Of a stretch of DNA of 24,512 bases, positions 3,616 to 23,545 are shown piece after piece (the first letter of the stretch is position 1; every line of letters starts with the position of its first letter). This stretch comes from Candidatus Thorarchaeota archaeon. Its GTDB lineage: Archaea; Asgardarchaeota; Thorarchaeia; Thorarchaeales; Thorarchaeaceae. The DNA is taken from positions 1 to 24,512 of the forward strand of contig JAEOUG010000006.1 in assembly GCA_016839445.1 (NCBI GenBank), written 5' to 3'. The position numbers and the translations under genes were made by a program. Under the pieces are notes generated by a model. That model was not told where the DNA came from and did not search any database. It worked only from the letters and a program-made list of their open reading frames with translations.

Positions 3616-4824
3616 GTGGATTTGCCCGCTTCTTCGAGAAGAAGGAACCGACTGGTAGGTTACATATCCACATTCCTAGTAACGTTCACGCTCGGCACGA
3701 CGGAGATTTTTGCGCCTTGGTATACTGGAATCCTCGGTGGAAGCGGCTTCGAGATAGGATGGGCGATGGGCTCCTTTGGCATTGTCTACATGGTCTCTCC
3801 CGCATTGGGGGGCCGCTTCTCGGACAGGGTCGGAAGGAAGCGATCACTGACAATAGCCACTATCGCATACATTGGAGTCCTAGTCCTTTACCTGAATCCC
3901 TATCTCGTTTCGCCGCTGTACCTCATCACAATCCGAGCTCTGGAAGGACTGGTCTACGGCTTCATTGCGCCTTCCATCCAGGGAATGCTTGCGGAACTGA
4001 CTCCGGAAGCCGAATGTGAGGTCCTAGGCAATTTCTCCACATCTTGGAGTGCGGGAATGATATTCAGTCCATTTGTCATCGCCTATGTCGAGGGACTCTA
4101 CCAGCCAATCTCAACCATCTATGTAGTGCTCGCTATCGAGCTAGTCTCACTGGGGCTGATTGCAGGTCTGCTGCAGGGATATCGCAGGAAGAAGGTGACT
4201 GTTGATGATGCCACCAACAACGACTCCACCAAAGAGACATCGCTGAAGAGTGCTTCTAAAACGAGCCCCAGGTTCATTGCATCATATCTCTCGATCATGC
4301 TATGGGGCGTTGTCTCTACGGTAGTCCTCGCCCTCTTTCCGTCCTACGTCGAAACACTCCCTGGACTCACATCAGACCACTGGGGTATCATGTTGCTTGT
4401 ATGGAATGGTGTTCGAACTGTGGCGTTCATTGTCACTGCGCGCCTTCCTGAGCAATCTATGAGCTCTGTAATCACGTACGGGGCGATTCTCTCAGCCGTT
4501 TCGTCTGCAATGCTCTTCGCATTCACAGACTTCTGGATGCTGGCCATGGCAATGGTTGTTTCAGGTGTGGCCGTAGGATTCAGCTATCTCGGAGCGCTCT
4601 ATCTGATTGTCTCCGCCACCGACATTGAGAAGGGTGCATACGCGGGTCTTGTTGAGAGCATGGGGGGAGTCGGGCTCTTTCTTGGTCCGATCCTAGGTGG
4701 CTGGCTAGCCGACTTCCAGCTCACCCTGCCGTATCTGATGTGCACAATCCTGTCAGTGGTGGTCATCATTGGAATCATCCCCCTGCTGCGGAGAGAAAAG
4801 CTCAAGGCGCAAATCATTCCTTAA
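3616..4824 (+). CDS. MFS transporter (about 12 TM)
   Basis: Motif A GRFSDRVGRKR, IRALEG, two hydrophobic halves joined by a polar loop. GTG 3616 preferred over TTG 3526 because AGGTGA (3600-3605) lies 10 nt upstream. Confidence 0.88.
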   Translation: MDLPASSRRRNRLVGYISTFLVTFTLGTTEIFAPWYTGILGGSGFEIGWAMGSFGIVYMVSPALGGRFSDRVGRKRSLTIATIAYIGVLVLYLNPYLVSPLYLITIRALEGLVYGFIAPSIQGMLAELTPEAECEVLGNFSTSWSAGMIFSPFVIAYVEGLYQPISTIYVVLAIELVSLGLIAGLLQGYRRKKVTVDDATNNDSTKETSLKSASKTSPRFIASYLSIMLWGVVSTVVLALFPSYVETLPGLTSDHWGIMLLVWNGVRTVAFIVTARLPEQSMSSVITYGAILSAVSSAMLFAFTDFWMLAMAMVVSGVAVGFSYLGALYLIVSATDIEKGAYAGLVESMGGVGLFLGPILGGWLADFQLTLPYLMCTILSVVVIIGIIPLLRREKLKAQIIP

Positions 4825-5578
4825 GGACATCATCGAAGGAACCCTTGAGTGAGGGGGCTTCATTGATCTTCTTCCGCGGCGGGTCAGGGTAGGCTACCTT
4901 ACTGTGCGTGAGACCTGTTTCAGCTAGCATGAATGCGGTCTTGACAGCTACGACCCAAGGGTCAATTATCGGCACCCCTAGCTCGTTCATTACCGGCTCT
5001 AGGTCAACTTCGTGGGAGAGGGCCGTACATCCGAGTACAATCACGTCGGCACCATGATTCTGAATTAGCTCCTTACTCTCTAGGAGTATCTCTTTCTGCG
5101 CATCCTTTGGTCGCTTTGATATGTCGAGGACTGGCATCTTCAGATACCGGACACCTGCGCAGAAAGGCTCGAGACCCTCCTTTCTGATTCCATGCTCAAT
5201 GCAACGTTTCAGGGACTGACCTTGAACCGTCACGACTCCGAATCTCGTTCCCAAAGTCAGAGCGAGATGCAGTGCTGTGTTCCGCGGACCCACGACGGGA
5301 ATCTTCGAGACCTCCCTAGCCGCCTCGAGGATGGGGTCGCATGCACAATCAATCACGATTACATCGTACTGCTCACGATTAGCTCGGACAACTTGCTCGA
5401 GAATGAATGGCGCATTGTAGGCCTCATCTGTCAAAGACTCAACGCTGTGAGTGCCATGGCGGGGGGTCAGATTCCCTACTTCCGAGCCGCCTGGCACGTG
5501 CTTCAACACGAAGGTCATCTTCTTCGGGTCTTCCCACCAGTCTATGCCAGTGGCTCCAATTAGCGCGAGTCGTACCAT
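4814..5578 (-). CDS. Asp/Glu/hydantoin racemase family (hydantoin/allantoin racemase-like), 254 aa
   Basis: Two-cysteine motifs IVIDCACDP and VIVLGCT, plus AAREVSKIPVVG, LGVPIIDP and C-terminal GLTHSKVAYP. SD AAGGAG upstream on the minus strand. Confidence 0.88.
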   Translation of the reverse strand: MVRLALIGATGIDWWEDPKKMTFVLKHVPGGSEVGNLTPRHGTHSVESLTDEAYNAPFILEQVVRANREQYDVIVIDCACDPILEAAREVSKIPVVGPRNTALHLALTLGTRFGVVTVQGQSLKRCIEHGIRKEGLEPFCAGVRYLKMPVLDISKRPKDAQKEILLESKELIQNHGADVIVLGCTALSHEVDLEPVMNELGVPIIDPWVVAVKTAFMLAETGLTHSKVAYPDPPRKKINEAPSLKGSFDDVLKE

Positions 5579-5627
5579 GCTAAATCAACTCCTTACCGCA
5601 TTAGGGGCACGGGGCAGTATACACTGC

Positions 5628-6749
5628 TCACTTGTGAAGCCGCCCAATAATATCTTCCATGGGCAGATAGACAAGCTCAGGATGGCCGTAGCGCGCAGGA
5701 GAGAATGCCTTCTTGCCAATCTCCGTACTTCCTGCGTGCCGCAATCGTTCGTGGGCAGAGACTGCCGTCACTGCCACCTCCATGCCCTTCTTCAGATGAG
5801 AACTCATTATTCCATGTCCGGTCTTCGGGTCATGAAGACAGATGAGATCTGGAAACATCACCACAGGCTCACCACCCGCCATCGCCATCATGTATTCGTT
5901 CTTCACGACGATCTGGAGCTTCCTCGAAATCTCCTTCGAAGAGATTGTGACAAGAACATGCCAGTGGCCGGCCCGATCCTCTCCTTTGACCTCGGTTATC
6001 TTTCCAGTGGCCAATCTCTGTCCACCTGTGATGTCAAGGAATGCATCGATAGGATTACGGCCATTCTCATTCGCGTCCCGTACTGCCTCTCCAAGCTCAA
6101 CCGATTTGGAGATGCTGTCGGGAATGACCGCCTCCTTCAGCTGCGCGCCAGTTTGGTAGTAGTGGTTGTTCGCACCGGCCCCACCATCCTGAACGACAGC
6201 AAACCGCCCAATCTCGTCGGCCAGAGCCGGTGATGTTGTCTTCTCGACGATTATGACACTGCCATTCCTTGTGACAACGGGCATTGGGCACAACTCAATC
6301 CCATAGCCAACGAAGGTTATCATTTGGGTTTCAGGGGCCGAACGACCTAAGCCGTCTCCATCCACTGTAGTGATACCAGCCCGCGAGGCAAGTGAGAGCA
6401 TGACCGTTGTGTTTGTCCCACCAAGTTCGAATGGGACAAGGTGATCAACCTTCTTGCCCGTGATCTTCTCTGACATCTTCATCGCTTCGTGGAGCTCGTA
6501 CTTGGTCTCCCAGGCTTCCAGCATGTCTCCAATAGAGGTGAACGCGCTGACAGAGCCCATGTATCCGCCGCACACAATGAAGGCATCATCTCGAATCTCA
6601 GAAGGAGGCGTGATCTCATAGACCCGCCCTTTTCCATAGTCCCAGTCGACCATTGGTTTTCCGAAGCCAACGGGGTCACCGCCCCCACCTGTGCCCAGTA
6701 TTCCCACTCCGGTCAGCATGTCATATGCATTCTGTTTCGACAGCTTCAT
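5628..6749 (-). CDS. DUF917 family protein, copy A (S-methyl-thiohydantoin desulfurase-like fold)
   Basis: LGTGGGGDP, PFELGGTNT, DGDGLGRSAPE, KNEY, FPDLI. ATG 6749 has GAGGT 6 nt upstream (alternative TTG 6755). Confidence 0.88.
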   Translation of the reverse strand: MKLSKQNAYDMLTGVGILGTGGGGDPVGFGKPMVDWDYGKGRVYEITPPSEIRDDAFIVCGGYMGSVSAFTSIGDMLEAWETKYELHEAMKMSEKITGKKVDHLVPFELGGTNTTVMLSLASRAGITTVDGDGLGRSAPETQMITFVGYGIELCPMPVVTRNGSVIIVEKTTSPALADEIGRFAVVQDGGAGANNHYYQTGAQLKEAVIPDSISKSVELGEAVRDANENGRNPIDAFLDITGGQRLATGKITEVKGEDRAGHWHVLVTISSKEISRKLQIVVKNEYMMAMAGGEPVVMFPDLICLHDPKTGHGIMSSHLKKGMEVAVTAVSAHERLRHAGSTEIGKKAFSPARYGHPELVYLPMEDIIGRLHK

Positions 6750-6768
6750 TGCCAAACCTCAGTTGATT

Positions 6769-7569
6769 CTAATCAGCCTGTCTTATCCCATCCATCGAGT
6801 GAACAATCTTGTACCATCGCTTCTTGGGGCCCACCTTGGCCCGGCTCTTCCATCCCCTGGTCTTCGGTTCATCCTCGATCATGCGATGTAGCTTCTTCAC
6901 TCTCTCCAACACCAAGTCCTTCTGCTCCTGTGTGATTTCGCGAACGGAGGGAACGAACTCGATGAACTTCTTGATGTTAGTTGTCACAGTGTAATAGAAG
7001 CCCCAGTCGTCAGCCAGAATCTTCGCGATGTGGTAACCGTTGACCTTTGAATCGTCATCGGTTTCGCTGACCTCGTGGGCAAGGAACGTAATGATAAGGT
7101 CCTTCAGGTCCTTAGCGTTAATTTCAACAATCTGAGTTTTCTCGAGGAAGAGCTCGGCTAGCGGAATCGTAGGCGAATCGACTTCGAGGCGCTTATCCTT
7201 CTTGAAGTCTATATTGTGACAGAAGTCGAGATGGTCGTAGAAGACGTCAACCTTTCTGTCGCGCTCCTTGTCAATGAAGAGATCCCGAAGGGTGCTGGCT
7301 CTAGCGAAGCTTGGCGGAACCCAATGATATCCGAGTTCATCCCTGAAGAGATTGATGATCTTCTGCTGATGCTTGTAGTATGAGATGTAGTCTATATCAG
7401 TGACTTCTCGACCCATCTTCTTGTGCAAGTCAGTGTACTCGGGGCTCTTGAGTCTGAAAGCCAGGCAGCCGATGAGCCTCAAGGGGACTCCCGTTTCTGC
7501 TGCAGCCTTCTCGATTCTGAGAGCCTCTTCCATGAAATCGTCAAGTATCGGACCGTATTTTCCAGGCAA
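6769..7569 (-). CDS. Uncharacterised protein with Pol-beta-type nucleotidyltransferase signature, 266 aa
   Basis: LRLIGCLAF...REVTDIDY...KVDVF fits hG[G/S]..DxD..D. The C-terminal helical part LFLEK...KDLKD resembles DUF1814/AbiEii-like NTases. TTG start with GGAG upstream. Confidence 0.7.
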   Translation of the reverse strand: MPGKYGPILDDFMEEALRIEKAAAETGVPLRLIGCLAFRLKSPEYTDLHKKMGREVTDIDYISYYKHQQKIINLFRDELGYHWVPPSFARASTLRDLFIDKERDRKVDVFYDHLDFCHNIDFKKDKRLEVDSPTIPLAELFLEKTQIVEINAKDLKDLIITFLAHEVSETDDDSKVNGYHIAKILADDWGFYYTVTTNIKKFIEFVPSVREITQEQKDLVLERVKKLHRMIEDEPKTRGWKSRAKVGPKKRWYKIVHSMDGIRQAD

Positions 7570-7753
7570 TCGTCTCTCTCCAGAACTTTTGAATGGTGTC
7601 GTGACCTTGATTGCACTACTTTAATTCTTTGCGCAACAGCACAGAACGCGGGCAGGATTTCTTAAAGTCAATTGCCCCCTACCATTAAACCTTTAAACTG
7701 GCTAGCAAATTCGCGTCTAGTTCTGATGAACGATACAACCTAGAGGTATTAGA

Positions 7754-8695
7754 ATGAGAATCTTCCTTGCTGCTGACCCTCATGGGAGCAACGAAACGTG
7801 GAGCAAGATGTGTCGTGCGCCAGGTGTATTCAAGGCCGATGTGGCAATGATGTGTGGCGACCTCACTGGAAAGGCCATAATGCCCATCATCCAAGAGAAA
7901 GAGGACAGGTGGTATGCCCAGCCCTATGGACAGAAGAAGGAGTTCAAGAAGCAGAAGGACTTGGACAAGTTCGTCAAGTTCGTAGAAACTGAAGGATACT
8001 ACCCGAAGGTCCTCACGCCAGAGGATTTGGCGAAACTCAGAGAAACGGAAGGTGCCATCACGAAGCTCTTCCAGGACCTAATGGTTGAGAGGATTCAGAT
8101 GTGGATGGATATGGCCAGAGAGAGGATACCCGAGGACGTACTTATCGTGGTCAACCCTGGTAATGATGATGATTACTCAATTGACGAAGTCATCAAGAAT
8201 GACCCCAGGATTGTGTATCCTCTTGGCAGAGTGGTTGATGTCAGAGGCTATCCCATGATAAGCTGTGAATGGGTCAACTCAACACCTTGGGACACTCACC
8301 GGGAGTGCCCAGAGGAGGAACTTATGGAAAAGCTAGAGGCGGAGTTTGCGCGTCTAGAGACTGATGACTACTCGAATGTCATCTGCAACTTCCACGACCC
8401 CCCATTCAATTCGGGTCTTGATACTGCGCCTACACTGACTCGGGATCATAAGATCAAGAAGGCAGGCGCCTACGAAGTCGTCGGCCCTGTAGGTAGCAAA
8501 TCGGTTCGAGCCATCATTGAGAAGTATCAGCCACTGCTTGGCCTGCATGGTCACATTCATGAGTCAGTAGGCTATCGCAACATTGGCAGAACACTGTGTG
8601 TCAATCCCGGCTCTGAATACCGAGAAGGGATTCTCAAAGGCTTCGTAATCAACGTCGATGACGGCAAGGTGAATGCGGGCCGCGTAGAGCTCTAG
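7754..8695 (+). CDS. Calcineurin-like (Icc-related) metallophosphoesterase, 313 aa
   Basis: All five motifs present: ADPHG, CGDLTG, PGNDD, FHDPP, GHIHE, then VNPGS. TTTAAA at 7692-7697 and GAGGT at 7743-7747 upstream. Confidence 0.9.
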   Translation: MRIFLAADPHGSNETWSKMCRAPGVFKADVAMMCGDLTGKAIMPIIQEKEDRWYAQPYGQKKEFKKQKDLDKFVKFVETEGYYPKVLTPEDLAKLRETEGAITKLFQDLMVERIQMWMDMARERIPEDVLIVVNPGNDDDYSIDEVIKNDPRIVYPLGRVVDVRGYPMISCEWVNSTPWDTHRECPEEELMEKLEAEFARLETDDYSNVICNFHDPPFNSGLDTAPTLTRDHKIKKAGAYEVVGPVGSKSVRAIIEKYQPLLGLHGHIHESVGYRNIGRTLCVNPGSEYREGILKGFVINVDDGKVNAGRVEL

Positions 8696-8707
8696 CATCA
8701 CGAGATA

Positions 8708-8757
8708 TCAGAGAGAGTGCGATGACACTCTCCTGAACTTCTTCTGCCCTTTCTCTG
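8708..8757 (+). terminator. Hairpin plus pyrimidine tract after the metallophosphoesterase
   Basis: TCAG-A-GAGAGTG-CGATGA-CACTCTC-CTGA (8708-8736), then ACTTCTTCTGCCCTTTCTCT. Confidence 0.45.
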
Positions 8758-8765
8758 TTAAGAGA

Positions 8766-8805
8766 TTTAAGTCAGTGTGCACACTCTTTCTTAAACTCAC
8801 TTAAA
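8766..8805 (+). promoter_or_regulatory. Promoter region with perfect 12-bp palindrome (candidate operator)
   Basis: AGTGTGCACACT at 8774-8785 between TTTAAG (8766-8771) and CTTAAA repeats (8790-8795, 8800-8805). ATG at 8820. Confidence 0.45.
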
Positions 8806-8819
8806 GGGCGGATGATTGA

Positions 8820-9935
8820 ATGGGACTGACTCTGAAGACGAGAGCAGATGTTGAGGATCTCACCACTGGCTGCACCTTCTTTGGAACAGGCGGCGGTGGT
8901 GACAAGCAGCTTGGCCTGAACATGCTGTACCCGCACATCGATGCGGGTACGAGGATTCAAATCGTCGATGTAGGCACCATCAAAGACGACGACTGGCTTG
9001 CCTGTCCGTATTACTCGGGCACTATTGCTCCACCTACATCTGAGATTGAGGCAGTGAGGACCAGATTCCCCTGGGACTTCTTTGAGAAGGAACTCGCAGA
9101 AGGGCTAGCCGCACTAGAAGCGCACATGGGAGTGAACTTCGCGGCTGCAGTGCCGTTTGAGCTTGGAGGTGTCAACACCCCCGCCCCAATCGATGCCGCC
9201 GTGAAGCATGGGATTCCGTGCGTAGATGGTGACTACTCAGGTAGAGCTGTTCCTGAGATATGTCAGAACACTGTCTGCGTCAAGGGATACTCCATGGCAC
9301 CGATGGCACTTATTGACTGGTATGGAAACAAGAGCATTGTGGAGCACGTAGTGAACTACGAAATGGGTGAGCGAATATCGAAAGCGCTTAGCGAGGTGGC
9401 CTGGGGCCGTCTCGGAAATGTTGCGTTTCCAGTGAAGGGAAAGGACTTCCACAGGGCAATCATCCCCGGAACACTCAGCAAGAGCTACAGGGTAGGACGC
9501 ATTATCCGAGAGAGTCGGGAATCGGGAGATGATCCCGCTGCCAGGATAGTTGAGAGCGTTGGAGGCTGGGTTCTGTTCAGAGGAGAGGTCGTTGAGAGAA
9601 CCTGGGAGAACAGAGAAGGCTACATGTGGGGAGAGACCGTCATCAAGGGCAGCGGTGTCAAACCTGGAATGAAGATGAAGGTCTGGTTCAAGAACGAGAA
9701 CCATGTGACATGGCTTGACGACAAGCCTTGGATTACGAGCCCGGACATAATAGAGATTATAGATTCGAAGACAGGTGAGCCCATCACGAACACTGACATC
9801 AAGGAAGGTGACAAGGTCAGTGTTGTCGGAATGAAGGGTGAACCCGTTTTCAGAACAGAAGAAGGACTCAAGGTGTTGGGACCTCGCCATTTCGGATTTG
9901 ATCTCGACTACAAACCCATTGAGAAGCTAGTATGA
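8820..9935 (+). CDS. DUF917 family protein, copy B, 371 aa
   Basis: FGTGGGGDK, PFELGGVNT, DGDYSGRAVPE, FKNEN, SPDII, LGPRHFG. Confidence 0.9.
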   Translation: MGLTLKTRADVEDLTTGCTFFGTGGGGDKQLGLNMLYPHIDAGTRIQIVDVGTIKDDDWLACPYYSGTIAPPTSEIEAVRTRFPWDFFEKELAEGLAALEAHMGVNFAAAVPFELGGVNTPAPIDAAVKHGIPCVDGDYSGRAVPEICQNTVCVKGYSMAPMALIDWYGNKSIVEHVVNYEMGERISKALSEVAWGRLGNVAFPVKGKDFHRAIIPGTLSKSYRVGRIIRESRESGDDPAARIVESVGGWVLFRGEVVERTWENREGYMWGETVIKGSGVKPGMKMKVWFKNENHVTWLDDKPWITSPDIIEIIDSKTGEPITNTDIKEGDKVSVVGMKGEPVFRTEEGLKVLGPRHFGFDLDYKPIEKLV

Positions 9936-9940
9936 GATCA

Positions 9941-9970
9941 GAGGGCCAGCTAGTCTGCTAGCTGGCTCTC
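9941..9970. terminator. 13-bp hairpin between convergent genes
   Basis: GAGGGCCAGCTAG-TCTG-CTAGCTGGCTCTC (one G:U pair on the + strand) fills most of the 40-bp gap. Confidence 0.55.
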
Positions 9971-9975
9971 ACAAC

Positions 9976-10680
9976 CTATTTGGCTGAAAGCCTGATCTTA
10001 ACGACGTAGTGCTTCCTGAATCCGCTGGGCTCCTTGATGACCTCGATGCCCTCGTAGTCGTCATTGAAGAACTTGACCAACTTCTTGTCAGGATTAGCTC
10101 CATCCTTTCTCATTAGCCGAGCCACATGGAAGATCATTGATTGGGTCCACTTCTTCAGAACTCTTCTCTCGTTGCTCACTAGTTCGGGGTGATCCTCTAT
10201 GTAGTAATGAATGGCCCATGCAACTTTTCGGTTATACCAGGATGAAGACAGCCAGCTTATCAACATGAGAGCAATAGCAGCAATGGAAAGCGGAAATGCT
10301 ATCGGCTGTAGCCATTCAAGTGTAAGAACCCATGTGAAGACTAGGAGAGGGACTGCAATGGTTAGCAGTGCCATGGCCGCAAAGGAGATGTACTGCTTCT
10401 GGTTTAGCCACTTCTCAACGTTGGGCACCTTTGGACCAAGTGCCGCGAGTTTGTGAAGAACTGACCTAATTGTACCCCACTGCTGGATGAAGCTTCTCGG
10501 GAGCTCACCCTTGTTGATCTTCTTGTCAACAAACTCCGTGCTGTACGTACGGTTGATGCGGTACGCATCCATTACCGTAATCAGATTACGACTGAAATCC
10601 AGATCGAGACCGGAGGTGGCTATGTCGAGACCCTCGGCGGCCTGACTATCGTCCTTGCTCCTTTTTGACTGGCGACTCAT
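9976..10680 (-). CDS. Hypothetical membrane protein, two central TM helices, 234 aa
   Basis: Hydrophobic hairpin YISFAAMALLTIAVPLLVFTWVL / IAFPLSIAAIALMLISWLSS. GTTAATTA on the minus strand about 23 nt upstream. Fills the gap with no competing ORF. Confidence 0.75.
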   Translation of the reverse strand: MSRQSKRSKDDSQAAEGLDIATSGLDLDFSRNLITVMDAYRINRTYSTEFVDKKINKGELPRSFIQQWGTIRSVLHKLAALGPKVPNVEKWLNQKQYISFAAMALLTIAVPLLVFTWVLTLEWLQPIAFPLSIAAIALMLISWLSSSWYNRKVAWAIHYYIEDHPELVSNERRVLKKWTQSMIFHVARLMRKDGANPDKKLVKFFNDDYEGIEVIKEPSGFRKHYVVKIRLSAK

Positions 10681-10788: not shown

Positions 10789-11751
10789 ATGAGCCAACCA
10801 AAGCAAGAAGTGAAGACCGATATGTCAGACTATGAGAAGTTGCCTGATGCAGAGTATACAGCCAATGACCCGTTCAATGAGAACAACGAGATACAGATTG
10901 GGTCCGAATTGATCCGTTTCTTTCTAGAACGTGAGAAGAAGGGTCGGAAGTACTACCAGCAATATGATGCGAAGCTGAGTGAAGTTGTTTCCTATGATGT
11001 CTGCGAGGTTCATTTCTGTAAGAGTGACCTTACCTGGCCACTCCATGAACAGATACCCGAGGAGTTCGAAACACTAGATACTGCAGGGCTGGTCTTCCTA
11101 TACACAGTGCTCGAGGGAGCGGCCTTCTTTCCAGTGTGGTGCCTAATCCCGTTAGAGGATGTCCCAGAGGCACGCAATGCAATTGAGGAGAATCTCAATC
11201 GCCCTCATCTACCAGGGTTGGCTCATCATGGAACTGCTGCTGCAGTCAAGTACATTCTGGACAACTGTGAGATTGTAGAAAGGATCAGTGGGGAGTGGTA
11301 TGACTGGGGCAAGAGGGGCAGGCAGTACAAGCCCAATCCCAAGTTCCGAGAGAGAGGTCCCGACTATGTGTACTGCAAAGAGGGAATGGCAATCGACTTC
11401 TACGGAGCAGGCGAGCAGCTTGAGCAAATGTCAGCTTTCTGGCCATGGAGACTAATCAGAAGAGTCTTTCCGGATCATGACGAACTGAGCGTCCGATACC
11501 AATGGAACGACGACGCCTACGTGTATAGTCAGCAGGTCCTTGAGAACGAGGACAGAGCTCGCTTCGTGGATGCAGCAGAGAAGGCTATGAAACTCTACCA
11601 CTCGTCAGAAGATGTCAGGGAGCTTCTCTTCATCAGACCATGGTCCTTCCCATCGAGATTCCATAGGACCTGGGACAAGCTCGAGCCTCTCTCCAGCAAG
11701 GCTTCACGAAACAAGTTTCCTCCTATCTATGACTTCGTCGAAGAAGACTGA
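10789..11751 (+). CDS. Hypothetical soluble protein, acidic and aromatic-rich, 320 aa
   Basis: Long ORF with ATG start and TTTAAG at 10741. No family motif recognised. Confidence 0.75.
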   Translation: MSQPKQEVKTDMSDYEKLPDAEYTANDPFNENNEIQIGSELIRFFLEREKKGRKYYQQYDAKLSEVVSYDVCEVHFCKSDLTWPLHEQIPEEFETLDTAGLVFLYTVLEGAAFFPVWCLIPLEDVPEARNAIEENLNRPHLPGLAHHGTAAAVKYILDNCEIVERISGEWYDWGKRGRQYKPNPKFRERGPDYVYCKEGMAIDFYGAGEQLEQMSAFWPWRLIRRVFPDHDELSVRYQWNDDAYVYSQQVLENEDRARFVDAAEKAMKLYHSSEDVRELLFIRPWSFPSRFHRTWDKLEPLSSKASRNKFPPIYDFVEED

Positions 11752-11807: not shown

Positions 11808-13373
11808 CTACTCGGGTGGTAGCTGTCCAAAGATGGCGGACATCTCGATGCCCTTTGCCTTGTTCTTTGCGCCGTAGTACATGTAGGCCAGCTGACCTAT
11901 CACGTAGATGATAACCGTGAACCAGACCTCAAATTGGACACCTGGGTCAGGTACGTAGGAAATCATAGCGTAGAAGAAGGCTGCACCGGACACCAAACCG
12001 CCTATGGAGATCAGTGGAATGCCTAGGAACTTCCAGGCTCCGCTGCGCTCCCATAACGTCGGTCGGTAGTACGGTAAGGACACTGCTGCCAAGGCCATCT
12101 GCCATCTGATGAAGACGTAGGTGTACGCTACGCCAATCAGAGAGGCAAGCGCCGTGCCGAAGAAGAACTGCAAGACCGTAGCATATGCTACTGTGCCAGC
12201 CGAGAGGATTAGCCAGAACCACAACGTGATGTGTGGTACATGGTACTTCGGATGGACTCTTGCGAACATCTCGGGGCAGAACCTGTCCATAGCCATCGAG
12301 TGCATCGGACGAGTCACCCATAGTGCGTTGCTGGGGGAGTCTAGCACGCTAGCAAATATCGGACATAATATCACGAAGAATGCCAGCGGATTGGCTCCGA
12401 GGGCAATTGCTGCATAGTTGCCGAAGCCTGGGAAGACACCACCTGCTATGTTGATACCATAGAGGTATGTTCCCATGCTGCTCTCTACTGCGAAACCAGA
12501 GAGCAGGAAGAAGCCGGCAATTCCAGCCCAGCCACCAACGTTGCTTAGTGGAATGTTCTTGCTTGGCTGCGAAACCTCACCAGCCACAGGCATAATCAGA
12601 TAGGGCCACATTCCACCAACGGTGAGAATGAGAGCACCACCGATTGCACCCGGATTGAAGGTAGTGAAGTCCACTGGCGTAGTCGGATCAAATGCACCCG
12701 GACCAGTCGCCCATGAGCCAGCACCGAATACGCCGTCCCATATTGTAGGCCAAGACGCATTGGGCGTTGCCAAGAGCACTAGGTCAGCTGTTAACAGCGC
12801 CAGTATGTTCACGAGCCCTAGGATTATCACAAACCATCCTAGCCATTTTACGCTAAGATAGCTGAAGACGAATCCTACAAGGATCATGAGGAGTGCCGCC
12901 ACGAACAACCAGGGAAGACCGGCATCACTAAGCAGGAAGATACCGCCAGTGGTCAACATTGCGTTGCCTGTGGCGCTTCCTACTATGATGAGTCCACCAG
13001 CAAAGATTTGCACAGCGAAGAAGCTACCTGTTCCTCTAAAGACAGGGTTCGTGATAACGCTTCGCCAGCCTTCCATAACACCGAATATCGGGCTCAGACC
13101 ACGTCCAGTGAAGTGGTATGAAGCACCAGATCTTGGCATAGCAAGCATCAGGCACATCAGTGAAAGTGCTTCAAAGAACACAATACCTGCACCAATGGCA
13201 TACATTGGGACAAGATGCGCGCCGGGATACCAAGTCGATACCTGCGGGCCGAAGTAGTGGAACCAGGGCCCAAGGGTAAGTGCTATGGGAAGGAGGAGAG
13301 CGAAACCAGTCCCTACCTCTTTAACGAGGCCGGAAGATTCTCGCACGAATAGGAGTTTCTCCTCTTCACTCAT
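11808..13373 (-). CDS. APC-superfamily amino acid/amine permease, archaeal type, 521 aa
   Basis: N-terminal LFVRESSGLVKE, AMPRSGA, AGEVSQPSKN, RPMHSMAMDRFCPEMFARVHPKYHVP, C-terminal IFGQLPPE, and about 12 or more TM segments. Confidence 0.92.
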   Translation of the reverse strand: MSEEEKLLFVRESSGLVKEVGTGFALLLPIALTLGPWFHYFGPQVSTWYPGAHLVPMYAIGAGIVFFEALSLMCLMLAMPRSGASYHFTGRGLSPIFGVMEGWRSVITNPVFRGTGSFFAVQIFAGGLIIVGSATGNAMLTTGGIFLLSDAGLPWLFVAALLMILVGFVFSYLSVKWLGWFVIILGLVNILALLTADLVLLATPNASWPTIWDGVFGAGSWATGPGAFDPTTPVDFTTFNPGAIGGALILTVGGMWPYLIMPVAGEVSQPSKNIPLSNVGGWAGIAGFFLLSGFAVESSMGTYLYGINIAGGVFPGFGNYAAIALGANPLAFFVILCPIFASVLDSPSNALWVTRPMHSMAMDRFCPEMFARVHPKYHVPHITLWFWLILSAGTVAYATVLQFFFGTALASLIGVAYTYVFIRWQMALAAVSLPYYRPTLWERSGAWKFLGIPLISIGGLVSGAAFFYAMISYVPDPGVQFEVWFTVIIYVIGQLAYMYYGAKNKAKGIEMSAIFGQLPPE

Positions 13374-13604: not shown

Positions 13605-14384
13605 CTATGCCGCGCCATCCGAGGTGAGCTGTTCGAAGAAGTCCTCGTCGAGGAACAGGATCTCAATCTTGCGAGATTTGACGCCAGCACGGCTCTCCTC
13701 CAGAATGTTCAGAATGATGTCTTTGTCCATTATGTGTACAGGCGGCACCGTGTAGTGGCTCTGCACTGCAGCCTCTCGTGCCTCCTTGGTACAGATACCG
13801 TTCGATATCAGTACTCCTTGATTCGCCTGATAGTTGGGAAGTGCTCCTCGTATCTCGAGAATGGTCTCCTTTCCTATCTCCTCGTTCAGGTCACACTTCT
13901 TGACGTGGAAGACGACTGGGGCCTCCCCACCATCGTCAAGCCATGAGCCTGTCAGAACCACCGTGTTGTTGTAGCGATCACGTTCTCTGACATCCTCAAC
14001 CCGCACTCGGATGTTGGCGAGGATGGTGTTGGCCAGATGAGCGAATGCCTTGAGGTCAAGCTGTGCAATGGCCTCGTTCATATCGCTACGGGCCTTCCGA
14101 TTGACCTCCTTGGCCTTCTCTCGAATCTCCTCATCGACCTTCTCTTCATCTTTGGCGGCTTCGCAGAGTTCATTGTAACGGTAGAGACCGGCTTTAACAC
14201 GTACGAAGTATGGTGGCCTTCCTTCGGTTTCGGCTTGGGCCTTCTCGATGGATAGAGAAGCAGACACAGATGCAGGGTCTCTGCCGAGCTCTTCGGCAAT
14301 CTCTCGATAGTGGATTGGCTCATCTCTGGCATTTTCGGCCATCCATTCTCTGAGGGTCGTTCGCGATGATCTGGAGTCAGCCAA
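13605..14384 (-). CDS. HARE-HTH (HB1/ASXL/restriction endonuclease winged HTH) fused to a Mrr-like domain with degenerate catalytic motif, 259 aa
   Basis: N-terminal EPIHYREIAEEL..PASVSASL...YFVRVKAGLYRY. C-terminal IGKETILEIRGAL...GVLISNGICTKEAREAA...VHIMDKDIILNILEESRAGV follows the Mrr_cat pattern. TTG start (alternative ATG 14342). Confidence 0.75.
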   Translation of the reverse strand: MADSRSSRTTLREWMAENARDEPIHYREIAEELGRDPASVSASLSIEKAQAETEGRPPYFVRVKAGLYRYNELCEAAKDEEKVDEEIREKAKEVNRKARSDMNEAIAQLDLKAFAHLANTILANIRVRVEDVRERDRYNNTVVLTGSWLDDGGEAPVVFHVKKCDLNEEIGKETILEIRGALPNYQANQGVLISNGICTKEAREAAVQSHYTVPPVHIMDKDIILNILEESRAGVKSRKIEILFLDEDFFEQLTSDGAA

Positions 14385-14852: not shown

Positions 14853-16045
14853 TCCTCGGGGAAGTAGTCAGACTCCAGTATCTCTGGATCCTCTATTCCA
14901 GCAGAGACCGCCATCAACTCAGCCACGTCAAGCACTCTTGCCTCGATGTCAGCAGCATAGGTGCCATGAGTCAGATTCATCTCACAAGCAGGGCATATCG
15001 TTGTCATTAGCTCTGCTCCTGTCTCGATGAAGTCCTGTATCCGTTCCTTGGCTACTGTGTTGCTATAGTCCTCATACAGAGTTTTCACGGCACCACCGCC
15101 ACCGCAGCAGAAGGCTTCCTCGCGGTTACGGGACATCTCAACAAACTGCACACCGGGGAGGGCATTGAGTATCTTCCGAGCAGGCTCGTAGATGCCTCGG
15201 TATCGCCCAATCTCACACGGATCATGATAGGTGATCTTCTTGTTTATTGGGACTGTGAACTTCAGCTTCTTCTTCTCGACTATCTCAGCCAGAACCTCGC
15301 TTGTGTGTCGAACGCGAATGGGGAACTCCTCGAGCCCAAGTAGCTCCGGATACTCCTCGTCAAAGGCTCTGAAACAGCTTGGGCACGGAGTGATGATCTC
15401 CTTGACTCCCCGGGCTTTGAGCTTCTCCAAATAACCCTCAGCCCACTGTTTGGCCTTCTGGTCCTTGCCTGTCACCCAGTAGGGGGTTCCACAGCAGGTC
15501 TGCTCATCGCCTAAGAAGTCAAGCTCGTATCCCGCAGCCTGAAGCACCCGAACGAGGATGTTCGTCTTCTCCTTGAACCTGTGACTGGCAAGACATCCTG
15601 GGAAGAAGAGCAACCCCGAGCCCTCCCTGAATTCAAGACCTTTTGCCCAGCCAGTGTGGACTTCTGGGGAGTCTGCGAATATGTTGCCTGATTCCAGGGC
15701 GGTGTTAGCCATGACTTCCCCGCCTTCGGGGATTTTCACTCCTTGGTCAACGAAGTCGCCGCGCATCGCCTTGGTTATGGCAATGGCATCTATGTTTGCA
15801 GCCTTCTTGCATTCCTCTCTGCATCGACCACACAAGAAGCATCCAAAGATCCTCTCAGCTAGTTCTTCAGTGTACTCCAAGTTCCCTTCGAGGAGTCCTC
15901 GTGCGATAGCCATTCGTCCCCGGAGTGTAGCAGATTCCCAGACTTGTGTGAAGATCTGCGGGCAGCGCTCATCGAAGTCAATGCCTCTGCAGAAGTTGCA
16001 CCTCCCGCAGGCATAGATCATGTCCCTGTATTCCTCAATCCTCAT
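14849..16045 (-). CDS. Fe-S oxidoreductase subunit, GlpC/GlcF/HdrD-like (2x 4Fe-4S + 2 CCG domains), 398 aa
   Basis: CGRCNFC..CP, CFLCGRCREEC, FPGC, TCCG, CPSC, YHDPC, FCCGGGG, CPAC. Shares an ATGA overlap with the upstream flavoprotein gene. Confidence 0.92.
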   Translation of the reverse strand: MRIEEYRDMIYACGRCNFCRGIDFDERCPQIFTQVWESATLRGRMAIARGLLEGNLEYTEELAERIFGCFLCGRCREECKKAANIDAIAITKAMRGDFVDQGVKIPEGGEVMANTALESGNIFADSPEVHTGWAKGLEFREGSGLLFFPGCLASHRFKEKTNILVRVLQAAGYELDFLGDEQTCCGTPYWVTGKDQKAKQWAEGYLEKLKARGVKEIITPCPSCFRAFDEEYPELLGLEEFPIRVRHTSEVLAEIVEKKKLKFTVPINKKITYHDPCEIGRYRGIYEPARKILNALPGVQFVEMSRNREEAFCCGGGGAVKTLYEDYSNTVAKERIQDFIETGAELMTTICPACEMNLTHGTYAADIEARVLDVAELMAVSAGIEDPEILESDYFPED

Positions 16046-17424
16046 CGCAGTTCCTCCTCTGGAATGAATATCCCGCGTTGCAGTATGTTCTTTGGATCGA
16101 GTGTCTTCTTCAATGTCTTCAGAAGGCGATAGTAACCCGTATCCCTCTCAGCGACAAAGCGTCGAAGACCGTCCCGTCCTCCGATGCCGTACGGAACTAC
16201 TGGTCCTGATAGCACCTTGGCATCAATCTCATCAGCCATCTCTACTAGCTCTTTCCACTCCTGGGGCTCCTTGTAGTTGGTCACCATGAAGGCCAGCCAT
16301 CGCCTTGGCAGAATCTGGCCCCCAAATCCAGCCTTCTTGTAGCCCCGTTTCTCTATGAGATCCTTTCTCCATATGTCATAGATGAAGTGGATGTCGTCGA
16401 TTCGCAGGGTTCCTGCTCCGAAGAAGTGCCAGACTCCAGCCGCGAAGAGATCGGTGAGCCCAGTGAGAATCCTGTCGAAGTAATCGTTGGCAGGTCCGGG
16501 GTCTCCAATCTCACCGCCGAGTTCCCTAATCTTCTCTAGAATCCGGTTCTTTCTGTGCTCCACAATCTCCTTCTCGTATCCGAAGATGTCCATCATGAGA
16601 AGGAAGACATCTGGAGAAGCCGGGTCCACCCATAGGTAGATGCCCTGCAAGTACTCGTCTCCAACATGCTGGTTGATGAAGTGTCCAAATGAAACCACGT
16701 CATCAAGCGACTTCATTACCGCAAGTAGGCGCTCCACATGGTCAGTTGCGGGGCGGATTCTCAGTGTGAGCTCGGTGCAGACTCCAAGGATTCCCTCGGC
16801 ACCGATGAACATCCCTCCCAAATCAGGACCAAGACACTGCCTCTCGAACTTCCCTGCACTGGGCCAAGCGGCAGAACCTGTTTCAACCACGTCCCCGGTT
16901 GGTAGCACCATCTGCAACGTTAGTACGTCCTGGTTGCCATGGAATCCGAACTTCGCTGTCGAGTGTGGACCACTACCCGCCTTCATCACAGAGCCGCCAA
17001 CGGTCATTGCCGGACCGCCAGCCTCGCTGCAGAGGTAGGTCAGGCCGTGCTTCCTGAGCTCCTGGTCAAGCTTGGCCCATGTGCAGTTGGGCTGAACTGT
17101 GACAGCGAGGTCACGCTCATTGATGTCCACTATTTTGTTCATGCGGCCCATGTCCATCATGATGCCCGGATTTTGAGCCAGATATGCATCCCAGTGCGAT
17201 GTTCCGCCACCTCGGATGTAGACAGGAACATTGTGCTCGTTGGCAATCTTGAGGATGGCCTGTACTTCCTCCTTGGAGTCTGGCATTACCACGTGAGTGG
17301 GCATCTTGGGCGCGGCGGGACTGAGATCACGGCTGTACGTAATCAGGTCGAAGTCCTTGTCCGTTACTCTCGAGGGACTGAGAGCCTCACCAAGAAGTGT
17401 GGTCAGCTTCTCCTTGCTCACCAT
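16042..17424 (-). CDS. FAD-binding oxidoreductase, GlcD/D-lactate dehydrogenase (VAO/PCMH) family, 460 aa
   Basis: HVVMPDSKEEVQAILKIANEHNVPVYIRGGGT, TVGG, GPDLGGMFIGAEGILGVCTE, LKKTLDPKNIL. Start moved to ATG 17424. Confidence 0.9.
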   Translation of the reverse strand: MVSKEKLTTLLGEALSPSRVTDKDFDLITYSRDLSPAAPKMPTHVVMPDSKEEVQAILKIANEHNVPVYIRGGGTSHWDAYLAQNPGIMMDMGRMNKIVDINERDLAVTVQPNCTWAKLDQELRKHGLTYLCSEAGGPAMTVGGSVMKAGSGPHSTAKFGFHGNQDVLTLQMVLPTGDVVETGSAAWPSAGKFERQCLGPDLGGMFIGAEGILGVCTELTLRIRPATDHVERLLAVMKSLDDVVSFGHFINQHVGDEYLQGIYLWVDPASPDVFLLMMDIFGYEKEIVEHRKNRILEKIRELGGEIGDPGPANDYFDRILTGLTDLFAAGVWHFFGAGTLRIDDIHFIYDIWRKDLIEKRGYKKAGFGGQILPRRWLAFMVTNYKEPQEWKELVEMADEIDAKVLSGPVVPYGIGGRDGLRRFVAERDTGYYRLLKTLKKTLDPKNILQRGIFIPEEELR

Positions 17425-17465
17425 TCTCTGTATCTCCTGTATTCCTTCCTCCTCATCATTCTCTC

Positions 17466-17506
17466 TGTTAAACGTTGTTAAACAGATGATATCAAGCACT
17501 TTAATA
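17466..17506. promoter_or_regulatory. Divergent promoter region with tandem 8-bp repeat
   Basis: TGTTAAAC at 17466-17473 and 17476-17483 (10-bp period, GTTTAACA on the minus strand). TTTAATA at 17500-17506 on the + strand, 27 nt before ATG 17534. Confidence 0.5.
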
Positions 17507-17533
17507 CGCCATTTGCAGACGAGGGTTGATACA

Positions 17534-19326: not shown

Positions 19327-19331
19327 CTCGC

Positions 19332-19808: not shown

Positions 19809-19830
19809 CCTTCATCCAGAATCAAGAACG

Positions 19831-19889
19831 CAAACTTAAACTCTCGGTCGCTAGCTCATGCTTGGTTCATTCAGGGAAGTTTAAGTTTG
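19831..19889. promoter_or_regulatory. Back-to-back promoters formed by a perfect 12-bp inverted repeat
   Basis: CAAACTTAAACT (19831-19842) and AGTTTAAGTTTG (19878-19889), 35 bp apart. Each presents TTTAAG about 26-35 nt before a divergent start codon. Confidence 0.65.
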
Positions 19890-19920
19890 GGCAAGGGGTT
19901 CTAGCCAGCCAGTGGTCCAT

Positions 19921-21081: not shown

Positions 21082-21128
21082 TCGTCCGCATGCGAACAGT
21101 AATGAATAGAAACGTGGATTGATGTGCA

Positions 21129-23468: not shown

Positions 23469-23545
23469 CGGCAAGGCCTTTCCGTTATCTTTAACATCTT
23501 GCGACCATTAGCTTAATCCTGTTTAAGCGAGGAGAAGAGTGGACA

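Follow-up and report, generated by a model that had tools for sequence, protein, structure and literature searches.

Gene organization of the locus

The window analyzed here is a stretch of 24,512 nucleotides from a Candidatus Thorarchaeota contig. Five of its open reading frames (254, 375, 266, 313 and 371 amino acids in the ORF listing) are arranged around a divergent intergenic region of 184 bp (7570-7753). On the reverse strand, the gene of a 266-residue nucleotidyltransferase recognized by its Pol-beta fold and motifs (NTL; 6769-7569, TTG start) is followed by DUF917-A (5628-6755, 375 residues, with N- and C-terminal domains resembling those of S-Me-THD; PF20906, E = 1.4e-39; PF06032, E = 5.2e-36) and by a racemase of the Asp/Glu/hydantoin type as the terminal gene of this arm (4814-5578, 254 residues; PF01177, E = 1.7e-38). 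On the forward strand, the gene of a calcineurin-type metallophosphoesterase assigned by fold and metal motifs (MPE; 7754-8695, 313 residues) is followed on its 3' side by DUF917-B (8820-9935, 371 residues; PF20906, E = 2.7e-57; PF06032, E = 3e-40). The start codon of DUF917-A is probably the ATG at 6749 and not the upstream TTG at 6755, and because this ATG was taken as the start, the gap between NTL and DUF917-A is 19 bp; the gap to the racemase is 49 bp. The 184 bp region and both gaps had been read in the same way in the first-pass annotation, the 19 bp holding with ATG 6749. A sigma-70 scan of 4700-10100 gave no site within 7570-7753, a bacterial consensus being uninformative for an archaeal host.

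Three further genes lie beyond DUF917-B: a small membrane protein of 234 residues with only a sub-threshold match to DUF2207_C (MEM; 9976-10680, reverse strand), a 320-residue protein (10789-11751, forward strand) and an APC-superfamily permease of 521 residues (11808-13373, reverse strand; PF00324, E = 1.3e-13). The 320-residue protein gave no match in Pfam and NCBIfam, and its cluster comprises 27 loci, every one of them in the Thorarchaeota orthologue group.

NTL has the fold and motifs of a nucleotidyltransferase

The window NTL matched no Pfam or NCBIfam family, including PF14907 (NTP_transf_5, gathering cut-off 31.2 bits), against which its relatives scored 19.4-28.8 bits, below the cut-off; in the protein atlas, PF14907 is annotated on 19% of one cluster neighboring NTL. 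An AF2 model (pLDDT 91.2) was compared with known structures using VIA-align. The best matches were MenT1 (8an4; Z 12.0, 168 aligned residues, rmsd 3.4), ANT(2'')-Ia (4xje; Z 12.0, 154 residues) and LnuA (4wh5; Z 10.8, 141 residues), with TglT (Z 8.7) and MenT4 (Z 8.2) lower, and all eight chains at Z of at least 8 were nucleotidyltransferases or NTase-like proteins. CD-NTases and Rel, which are messenger synthases with a Pol-beta fold, ranked lower among the structure matches. The top Foldseek match was JHP933 (E = 7.5e-4).

The motifs G34-C, D58xD60, D108 and K144...K153-D154..D157 were followed through an alignment of 48 relatives (31-46% identity). R54, D58, D60, K144, D154 and D157 are present in 48/48 sequences, D108 is Asp in 46 and Glu in two, G34 is found in 44, and K153 in 44 with Arg in two more. 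The hG[GS]...DhD catalytic motif of the Pol-beta superfamily is thus present, with a Gly-to-DhD spacing of 23 residues, which exceeds the superfamily consensus of 9-13 given in PMC3985639. D108, in the strand VDVF, is the third carboxylate and is predicted from the model to lie in the active site. Beyond the catalytic part, a C-terminal helical domain and basic tail carry the invariant residues W189, K236, W240, R243, G247 and W252. Taken together, the modeled fold and the motifs indicate that NTL is apparently an active Pol-beta-fold nucleotidyltransferase, distantly related to AbiEii/MenT (DUF1814) and to ANT(2'')/Lnu. The first-pass annotation had already picked out the two motif blocks and had proposed the fold.

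The likeness to AbiEii/MenT extends to most of the DUF1814 motif set given in PMC3985639, namely a motif-I Gly, an Arg four residues before DhD, DhD, a Lys and +DxxD. The series R54-x-x-x-D58-x-D60 falls in the register of AbiEii R63, D67 and D69, and K153-D154-L-K-D157 corresponds to motif IV. For motif III (KLxAaxxR), the Lys is present as the invariant K144 with hydrophobic neighbors, whereas the +7 position is Asn or Ser and not Arg; the Gly-to-DhD spacing in AbiEii/MenT is 15, against 23 in NTL. The DUF1814 Pfam model did not match the window NTL (P0001) even at E = 10.

This kinship raises the possibility that NTL and MPE form a toxin-antitoxin or defence-like pair, in which a tRNA-modifying toxin of the MenT/AbiEii type would be neutralized or reversed by MPE, for example by dephosphorylation of auto-phosphorylated NTL. 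Motifs I, II and IV of DUF1814 and the rank of MenT1 as best fold match speak for it, as does a weak match of the window NTL to the PADLOC candidate PDC-M15B (E = 1.9e-4). MenT toxins also offer a precedent, being switched off by auto-phosphorylation beside the catalytic Asp according to PMC11375011; in NTL, T57 precedes the catalytic Asp, yet its register differs by one position from that of MenT, and it is Thr or Ser in 21/21 close relatives but only 23/48 members family-wide. AbiEii/MenT are paired with an AbiEi/MenA antitoxin, whereas the partners of NTL are a phosphoesterase and a permease: no AbiEi/MenA-type partner and no winged-helix antitoxin gene was found in the window, where DUF917 and the metallophosphoesterase flank NTL.

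ANT(2'')-Ia and LnuA resemble the NTL fold at an equal or similar score and transfer NMP to a hydroxyl group on small molecules that bear an amine. Their sequence similarity to NTL is insignificant (profile against PDB, E = 0.45), and NTL differs from them in its additional conserved helical C-terminal half with the basic tail, in a context other than resistance and in its pairing with a hydrolase.

MPE has the complete set of metal motifs

The five metal motifs expected from the first-pass annotation were all found in MPE, as D8xH10, G35-D36, G136-N137-D138-D139 (motif III being GNDD), H214 and G266-H267-x-H269, with residues conserved in all or at least 90% of 20 sequences. The AF2 model (pLDDT 92.3) aligned in VIA-align with TT1561 (Z 24.4 over 206 residues) and aq_1956 (Z 23.9 over 228 residues), with the class-III phosphodiesterases MPPED2 (Z 21.3), GpdQ (Z 18.3) and Rv0805 (Z 18.2), and with PptH (6unc; Z 16.9); Foldseek matched 2yvt (E = 1.5e-10). 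Pfam scores of the window protein were below gathering (PF12850, 22.5 bits against 27; PF14582, 19.2 against 28.2), while homologues at 47-89% identity bear PF12850, PF00149 or PF14582 in a precomputed table. Fold and metal motifs are common to MPE, the Metallophos_3-like TT1561 and aq_1956, and the class-III enzymes, at about 16-19% identity; MPE differs by an additional stretch of about 90 residues that follows the GD motif, between metal motifs II and III, and holds the invariant GDLTGKA...P...W...P.G. The structure entry titles of TT1561 and aq_1956 name no substrate. On the basis of model and motifs, MPE is apparently an active binuclear metallophosphoesterase. NTL and MPE were both taken as cytoplasmic because signal peptides and membrane segments were absent by eye.

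The presence of the cyclic-nucleotide phosphodiesterases Rv0805 and MPPED2 among the fold neighbors of MPE, together with the Pol-beta fold of the CD-NTase and Rel synthases, would suit a local nucleotide signal, with NTL making a second messenger or alarmone-like product, MPE degrading it and the permease acting as its receptor. We consider this improbable: the nearest structural neighbors of NTL modify acceptors and are not cyclases, no known receptor domain was matched in the permease, and a diffusible product would cross-talk among the up to 7-10 copies per genome described below.

NTL and MPE belong to a conserved cassette with an APC-type permease

Linkage was counted over 43 loci that do not belong to the Thorarchaeota orthologue group. 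MPE lies beside NTL in 38 of them, in varying orders and orientations, and the linkage is far beyond chance. An APC-type permease accompanies NTL in 36/43 loci, MEM in 22/43, and a DUF917 gene accompanies the NTL/MPE pair in only 5/43. For 71 of the 108 distinct NTL copies, an MPE gene is found within 4 kb as well as an APC gene within 6 kb; of the other 37, which are incomplete, 24 are at locus edges. The core cassette therefore consists of NTL, MPE and a dedicated APC-type permease, with MEM as a frequent fourth member. It spans Asgard archaea, Bathyarchaeia, Nitrososphaerales, Chloroflexota and Thermoleophilia, and is often present in several copies per genome (7 matches in G025, 10 in G152). 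Between two Thorarchaeota cassette types, identity is about 47% for NTL and 50% for MPE and about 27% for the permease. The permease is not always close by: one complete Thorarchaeota chromosome has its orthologue at a distance of about 320 kb from NTL/MPE.

The first-pass annotation had named two findings that would speak against its proposal, the lack of a nucleotidyltransferase fold and unlinked homologues in other genomes. Since the fold is real and the linkage of the two genes extends over distant phyla, both points came out in its favor. It had also named no described pathway of this composition as known, and our literature search likewise found no published description of an NTL/MPE/permease cassette.

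The distribution also bears on the toxin reading. Some distant members of the NTL family are fusions, either with a complete SoFic defence protein (L102; SoFic E = 8.5e-100) or with a winged helix of the MarR type (P0239), which argues for it; yet in a FastTree phylogeny with midpoint root only, the solo and the fused members branch as a group of their own, mostly basal. AbiEii/MenT constitute a mobile two-gene module, whereas NTL stays linked to the permease and catabolic genes, in conserved synteny, throughout a family at 60-89% identity. A toxin-antitoxin or defence-like role thus appears quite improbable to us.

Cassette copies are associated with diverse catabolic genes

The cargo in the window consists of the two DUF917 genes and the racemase. 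DUF917-A and DUF917-B both carry PF06032 and PF20906 above threshold and are about 29% identical, with cross-matches at 26-32%. Against the thiohydantoin and S-methyl-thiohydantoin desulfurase equivalogs (cut-offs 440-450) the best DUF917 scores were 79.7 and 49.2 bits, the former for DUF917-A against NF058532 (cut-off 450), and by sequence the two proteins appear related to these desulfurases at family level only. As stated in the first-pass annotation, no hydantoinase or oxoprolinase family was matched in the 24 larger window ORFs scanned.

Elsewhere, the cassette is found with MttB, a corrinoid protein and URO-D; with a class-III aminotransferase, Fe-ADH and AOR; with a CN-hydrolase; with DAO-GCV_T dehydrogenases; with a copper amine oxidase and creatininase; or with an amidohydrolase and racemase. 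Each copy thus sits among different genes degrading amines, methylated amines or five-membered N-heterocycles. The pair occurs without DUF917 in the MttB/corrinoid, aminotransferase, creatininase, dimethylglycine-dehydrogenase-like and PfkB-SIS contexts. The initial interpretation of a nucleotidyltransferase-like/esterase pair heading two DUF917 arms was therefore only partly right: the pair holds, whereas the DUF917 arms are no defining part of the unit, and DUF917-A is lineage-specific catabolic cargo.

The same data weaken the suggestion that NTL and MPE stand in for the ATP-dependent hydantoinase/oxoprolinase step in a DUF917 pathway, a ring compound being first activated and then hydrolyzed. 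The absence of that step from the scanned ORFs and the gene order, with NTL preceding DUF917-A by 19 bp and MPE preceding DUF917-B, are in line with it, and so is a Chloroflexota locus (L115) with NTL, a racemase and a DUF917 gene (40% identical to DUF917-B) side by side. The scarcity of DUF917 among the non-orthologous loci and the occurrence of the pair with entirely different cargo argue against it. Moreover, Pol-beta transferases of the families matched by the NTL model act on hydroxyls, and the hydantoin ring offers none. We regard this proposal as very improbable.

A 935-residue ORF from Chloroflexota (L114) fuses a PfkB kinase, SIS domains and NTL, in the gene order GntR-UTRA, APC, PfkB-SIS-NTL fusion, MPE; the full fusion occurs in 1 of 301 genomes searched. 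In another genome (L116) a separate PfkB-SIS protein is encoded directly upstream of NTL. The order GntR-UTRA, APC permease, PfkB kinase, SIS in two Chloroflexota loci equals the gene set of the fructoselysine operon frlABCDR of E. coli. FrlB is matched by the SIS part (E = 3e-10), and remote matches connect PfkB with FrlD (E = 3e-5) and the permeases (E = 3e-5 and 2e-7). Unlike the cassette, the frl operon has no nucleotidyltransferase or metallophosphoesterase, and the frl-like context is seen in the Chloroflexota loci, not in the Thorarchaeota window.

The permease and MEM as possible targets

The extreme C-terminus of the cassette permeases is PPE in 19/21 aligned sequences, including the window permease. 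MEM has two central hydrophobic helices between soluble N- and C-terminal parts, and D38, R41, Q180, D208 and Y209 are invariant. A complex prediction for APC, MEM(26-234) and NTL reached a score of 0.32 (runs 0.44, 0.32 and 0.15) with the best control at 0.00, including the one with a substituted permease; the partners had pLDDT values of 81 or higher, and the runs shared no fewer than 60% of contacts. The mark applied was reached by 116/157 solved complexes and 2/215 mismatches, and at scores of 0.60 or less by only 18/157 solved complexes and both mismatches, so that a pass at such a score is more often wrong than right unless the complex is likely beforehand. Docking of NTL on permease and MEM is thus weakly predicted.

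Such docking would be expected if NTL reversibly nucleotidylated a hydroxyl residue of the permease or MEM and MPE removed the nucleotide, gating uptake post-translationally. This is the main rival to the mechanism that we favor. The pair keeps company with a permease whatever the downstream pathway, the permease diverges more than the pair from one cassette type to the other, and a writer and an eraser are the natural logic of a transferase paired with a hydrolase. The C-terminal domain and tail of NTL with their invariant residues, the permease PPE end and D208-Y209 of MEM are further features consistent with it. PptH provides a precedent for the MPE step by stripping a phosphodiester-linked group from a protein. 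The GlnD-GlnK-AmtB and GlnE-glutamine synthetase systems likewise combine a Pol-beta-fold writer with a removing activity, and in the AmtB case nucleotidylation controls a nitrogen-compound transporter. They differ from the cassette, in which the eraser is a calcineurin-type esterase and NTL/MPE are encoded beside each permease copy and not once per genome; no PII, HD, ACT or second NTase domain was matched in the 24 window ORFs. Against such a switch, no sensor domain was matched in NTL or MPE, MEM is absent from 21/43 loci, the permease can lie as far away as in the chromosome mentioned above, and the fusion found joins NTL to a sugar kinase and a SIS enzyme, not to a transporter. Seven to ten dedicated writer/eraser pairs per genome would also be unusual for regulators, and no directly nucleotidylated permease is known to us. 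We consider this switch somewhat unlikely.

Discussion

The mechanism that we favor, with a confidence that stays below even, is one in which an imported small molecule is nucleotidylated by the pair and de-esterified at a later stage. An amine-bearing compound would enter through the permease, and NTL would transfer NMP from an NTP to a hydroxyl on this compound or on a moiety common to the substrates, by a chemistry modeled on ANT(2'') and LnuA. The added NMP may capture or activate the compound on the cytoplasmic side, and MPE would later cleave the phosphodiester and thereby free the nucleotide, either ahead of the cargo enzymes or after they have acted. Multiple cassette copies, each with a different catabolic context, are the usual pattern of substrate-specific enzymes, and the PfkB-SIS-NTL fusion, the PfkB-SIS gene next to NTL and the close spacing of DUF917-A tie the pair to small-molecule enzymes.

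Several observations weigh against nucleotidylation of a small molecule. A transferase and a hydrolase acting on one adduct amount to a futile cycle unless steps intervene, and the cargo genes are so diverse that one shared acceptor moiety must be assumed. The stronger conservation of NTL and MPE relative to the permease is more easily reconciled with a constant chemistry than with a change of substrates. The fold neighbors of NTL include the tRNA-modifying toxins MenT1, MenT4 and TglT, the full PfkB-SIS-NTL fusion was seen in a single genome, and the weak docking on permease and MEM suits the permease switch at least as well.

In a broader formulation, which we put forward as a rather doubtful proposal, the pair would couple a secondary-type permease to nucleotide chemistry, either as a docked reversible switch or by trapping and releasing the substrate as an NMP adduct ('vectorial nucleotidylation'). 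If true, each permease copy would have its own dedicated writer/eraser pair, and the cassette would represent a general, unrecognized layer of control over how Asgard archaea, Bathyarchaeia and Chloroflexota take up nitrogen compounds.

Gene arrangement of the locus

The window comes from a Thorarchaeota (Asgard) genome, judging by the names of proteins with 80-89% identity to its products and by syntenic contigs. The arrangement described in the first-pass annotation was borne out by the ORF coordinates: genes for a racemase (4814-5578, minus strand), DUF917-A (5628-6755, minus strand) and the 266-aa nucleotidyltransferase-like protein (called NTL; 6769-7569, minus strand) are separated by a divergent gap of 184 bp from those for the 313-aa phosphoesterase (called MPE; 7754-8695, plus strand) and DUF917-B (8820-9935, plus strand). 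The 19-bp gap between NTL and DUF917-A is correct if the ATG at 6749 is taken as the start of DUF917-A. Pfam confirmed the racemase and both DUF917 proteins, returned sub-threshold matches only for MPE and nothing for NTL. On the thiohydantoin desulfurase equivalogs of NCBIfam the DUF917 proteins scored 79.7 and 49.2 bits, far under the cut-offs of 440-450. Along the locus GC content varies little (0.49-0.54), and the GC profile contains no island signature around it. A scan for sigma-70 promoters and terminators was uninformative for an archaeon.

Between the two-helix membrane protein (9976-10680, minus strand) and the APC-type permease (11808-13373, minus strand) lies a gene for a 320-aa protein with an acidic N-terminus and no family match (10789-11751, plus strand), which is confined to Thorarchaeota orthologue loci (27 loci). 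Next to the permease is a gene resembling Mrr-type restriction endonucleases (13605-14384, minus strand; PF04471 E 2.1e-9, PADLOC PDC-S02 E 2.9e-16), which is syntenic beside the permease in 25/37 Thorarchaeota orthologue loci, an unexpected position for a gene of defence type. The right flank (16042-24511) carries oxidoreductase genes of the FAD-binding and CCG-domain types, which NCBIfam relates to GlcD and GlpC/HdrD, together with genes resembling those for URO-D, RraA and ATC hydrolase and genes for an aminotransferase, a PfkB kinase and a 779-aa glycyl-radical (PFL-like) enzyme. In related genomes (loci L037, L038, L042 and L046) a nine-gene block (ATC-hydrolase-like, MttB, corrinoid protein, permease, membrane protein, MPE, NTL, ATC-hydrolase-like, Zn-ADH) separates the counterparts of the FAD-binding gene and the URO-D gene; the window is without this block, and its own assembly (89.8% complete) has a single NTL copy.

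A conserved cassette with variable cargo

A scan of one genome per species yielded at least 506 loci with an NTL relative, 80 of which were taken for neighbour counts, with ORFs called, clustered and the clusters labelled by the window proteins. Thirty-seven of the 80 loci are Thorarchaeota-type orthologues with the full synteny of the window (Fe-S, AOR, LLM, MFS, racemase, DUF917-A, NTL, MPE and DUF917-B, then membrane protein, unknown protein, APC permease and Mrr-like nuclease), and the remaining 43 belong to a second Thorarchaeota cassette type, Bathyarchaeia, Nitrososphaerales, Chloroflexota and Thermoleophilia. Among these 43 non-orthologous loci, in which order and orientation of the cassette genes vary, the neighbours of NTL were MPE in 38, an APC-type permease of one homologous cluster in 36, the two-helix membrane protein in 22, DUF917 in 5 and the racemase in 1 under strict clustering, with weaker racemase matches in 2 more loci (tblastn). 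The neighbour counts thus indicate that the unit is defined by NTL, MPE and permease, to which the membrane protein is often added. Both DUF917 arms, previously taken as part of the system, are cargo, and the related proposal that the pair replaces a hydantoinase step is the least probable of the readings considered here, since DUF917 is rare among the neighbours of NTL and MPE.

When the set was enlarged to 108 distinct NTL copies, including those added from multi-copy genomes, 71 had MPE within 4 kb together with the permease within 6 kb, while 13 had MPE only, 7 the permease only and 17 neither; 24 of these 37 incomplete cases sit at the edge of the DNA compared. The solo NTL group is small and mostly basal in a FastTree phylogeny with a midpoint root and many weak branches. 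In one complete Thorarchaeota chromosome the NTL/MPE pair lies ~320 kb from the permease orthologue. Between the two Thorarchaeota cassette types, identity is ~47% for NTL, ~50% for MPE and ~27-28% for permease and membrane protein. As a separate observation, in two Thorarchaeota genomes (L019 and L065) the segment of MPE, DUF917-B, membrane protein, unknown protein and permease is inverted and relocated, which leaves NTL adjacent to the Mrr-like gene and several kb away from MPE.

All components of the cassette belong to known superfamilies. No description of the cassette or of the NTL family was found among open-access papers and preprints, and literature combining nucleotidyltransferase, metallophosphoesterase, permease and DUF917 yielded nothing relevant. 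The DUF917 literature, judged by title or abstract, contained nothing on this locus type, and no open-access literature on thiohydantoin desulfurase or NTP_transf_5 was found.

The linkage of the pair to one permease family is conserved. The catabolic cargo is variable, as determined by Pfam scans of recurrent or adjacent neighbours. The second Thorarchaeota cassette has as neighbours an MttB-superfamily methyltransferase, a corrinoid protein, proteins resembling URO-D and ATC hydrolase, Zn-ADH and RraA. Elsewhere in Asgard archaea and Bathyarchaeia the copies are accompanied by class-III aminotransferases with Fe-ADH and AOR, by CN-hydrolase, by amidohydrolases with a Bmp-type ABC system, or by saccharopine-dehydrogenase-like proteins. 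The Chloroflexota copies have two DAO-GCV_T dehydrogenases, or copper amine oxidase and creatininase, and further ones FGGY kinases, HAD and GntR-UTRA; at L115, also in Chloroflexota, permease, racemase and NTL stand with a DUF917 protein 40% identical to DUF917-B. What these contexts have in common is that amines, methylated amines and small N-heterocycles are imported and degraded. The paper PMC11291895 describes Asgard non-pyrrolysine MttB-like genes as probable quaternary-amine methyltransferases, and the words 'permease', 'phosphoesterase' and 'nucleotidyltransferase' do not occur in it. At one Asgard locus (L091, G041:C7:122000-139000) the cassette adjoins PylD-like, ATP-grasp (PylC-like) and radical-SAM (PylB-like) genes, along with glutamate dehydrogenase and a class-III aminotransferase.

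NTL was present in 63/151 sampled genomes of the window's phylum (28/72 of those with completeness of 90% or more and contamination of 5% or less) and in 63/301 sampled genomes of Chloroflexota, the phylum of locus L080. Many genomes contain several NTL matches, with 7 in G025, 6 in G048 and 10 in the Thermoleophilia genome G152. That the pair makes and degrades a diffusible nucleotide signal is improbable, as these copy numbers disfavour it.

NTL, an apparently active enzyme of a new family, and the phosphoesterase MPE

The NTL family is large, without a family name and annotated as hypothetical only: at E up to 0.001 it comprises 1683 clusters in a library clustered at 50% identity, and among 711 near-length relatives in a set of 5.8 billion proteins every named one is hypothetical and 0 have a Pfam domain. 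Searches of Pfam, NCBIfam and PDB sequences with NTL gave no significant match, and a 48-sequence NTL profile retrieved from the PDB ANT(2'') alone (E 0.45). An AlphaFold2 model built from 21 sequences was confident (pLDDT 91.2, pTM 0.88). Its top Foldseek match was the putative nucleotidyltransferase JHP933 of H. pylori (E 7.5e-4), and a Foldseek-independent search returned MenT1 (Z 12.0, 168 residues, rmsd 3.4), ANT(2'')-Ia (Z 12.0, 154 residues), a Paracoccidioides NTase-like protein (Z 10.9), LnuA (10.8) and JHP933 (10.0) and, lower, TM1012 (9.7), TglT (8.7) and MenT4 (8.2).

In 48 relatives at 31-46% identity, residues R54, D58, D60, R95, H118, K144, D154, D157, W189, R243, G247 and W252 are invariant, and D108 is Asp in 46/48 and Glu in 2/48. 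With the four-motif description of DUF1814/AbiEii, as given in PMC3985639, NTL shares the motif I Gly, the Arg four residues before DhD, the Lys among hydrophobic residues and the +DxxD pentad (K153-D154-L-K-D157), but it is without the motif III Arg; the Pfam DUF1814 model does not match NTL. Several relatives score 19-29 bits on NTP_transf_5, for which the cut-off is 31.2. Fold, conserved residues and DUF1814-type motifs together indicate that NTL represents a new family inside the DUF1814/AbiEii branch of the Pol-beta superfamily and is apparently active. That NTL is a MenT-like toxin, with MPE as neutraliser or reactivator, is improbable given the lack of conservation of a regulatory phosphosite of MenT type (T/S57 in 23/48) and the metabolic and syntenic context of NTL.

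A protein of ~375 aa at L099 (7694-8815, minus strand), without Pfam match, corresponds to the C-terminal helical part of NTL only (model positions 147-237), and similar proteins are encoded in four sister genomes by ORFs of 375-381 aa. Hence the helical domain may exist apart from the NTase part, joined to a different N-terminal part.

MPE belongs to a much larger family than NTL, with at least 6962 members (E up to 0.001 in 6962/8000 candidates scored), whose relatives are named phosphoesterase or Icc-related by the sources. Its metal motifs are all invariant or nearly so in 20 sequences, motif III being GNDD, and an insert of ~90 residues after the GD motif holds additional invariant residues. 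The model was confident (pLDDT 92.3); the nearest structures were TT1561 (Z 24.4), aq_1956 (Z 23.9; Foldseek E 1.5e-10) and MPPED2 (Z 21.3), with further matches to Mre11 (~Z 20), GpdQ (Z 18.3) and Rv0805 (Z 18.2).

Membrane partners and complex prediction

The cassette permeases combine standard APC motifs with an unusual conserved extreme C-terminus, 19/21 ending in PPE; in the alignment of these permeases (A3), which includes that of the window (11808-13373, minus strand), the consensus is ...(L/I/V)PPE. This terminus looks like a docking motif. The invariant residues of the two-helix membrane protein are D38, R41, Q180, D208 and Y209. A complex of permease, membrane protein residues 26-234 and NTL as the scored partner was predicted with a score of 0.32 (runs 0.44, 0.32 and 0.15), which supports it weakly; all three controls scored 0.00, including one in which the permease was replaced, the partner had a pLDDT of 81 or higher, and at least 60% of contacts were shared between the runs. 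In the benchmark the mark was reached by 116/157 solved complexes and 2/215 mismatches, but at scores of 0.60 or under by only 18/157 solved complexes and yet by both mismatches, so that such a pass is oftener wrong than right unless the complex is likely beforehand. The predicted docking of NTL on permease and membrane protein is thus a hint only.

A possible, if rather doubtful, role of the pair is that of a protein-level switch on the uptake machinery. In its favour, the pair stays the same regardless of the cargo and follows the logic of a writer plus an eraser, and both enzymes are more strongly conserved than the permease; the conserved permease C-terminus and the weak docking result from modelling also count for it.

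Fusions and frl-like loci

No longer or fused NTL forms were found in the 5.8-billion-protein set, which is weak evidence, and no NTase-phosphoesterase fusion was seen among the 108 NTL copies or the open frames of genome-survey matches. Protein P0239 has a MarR-type winged helix N-terminal to NTL. A 675-aa protein of G152 (L102:10280-12307, minus strand) consists of full-length SoFic (PADLOC E 8.5e-100; Pfam Fic_N and Fic) and a distant NTL domain (residues 398-659), placing two different nucleotide-transferring domains on one chain. An uninterrupted 935-aa ORF in the Chloroflexota genome G442 (L114:5906-8713, plus strand) joins PfkB kinase, FrlB-like SIS domains and NTL, in the order GntR-UTRA, permease, PfkB-SIS-NTL fusion, MPE, amidohydrolase and hydantoin-type racemase. 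The order is the same in G345 (L116), except that PfkB-SIS forms a separate frame directly upstream of NTL; the full fusion occurs in 1/301 genomes. The gene set GntR-UTRA, APC, SIS and PfkB is common to E. coli frlABCDR and these two Chloroflexota loci. Sequence similarity to the frl proteins is remote (FrlB E 3e-10, FrlD E 3e-5, FrlA E 3e-5 against the G442 permease and 2e-7 against that of the window), and an frl-operon reading is valid as gene composition only, in the two Chloroflexota loci.

Discussion

NTL and MPE are apparently two active cytoplasmic enzymes, for NMP transfer and phosphoester hydrolysis, and all that we say of the acceptor's identity we infer. We tentatively favour the reading in which NTL would act on a small-molecule acceptor, because its non-toxin fold neighbours include ANT(2'') and LnuA, its operon position precedes catabolic enzymes, the copies within a genome are numerous and each has a catabolic context to itself, and PfkB-SIS is fused or adjacent to NTL. 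This reading and the switch on the permease were weighed almost equally.

In uncultured sediment archaea, whose substrates are for the most part guesses, NTL is a marker of loci that import and degrade amines, methylated amines and N-heterocycles. If the permease is the target, the pair would, to our knowledge, be the first to nucleotidylate a transporter directly, as we know of no other enzyme pair that does so. Identification of the acceptor would make dozens of catabolic islands interpretable.
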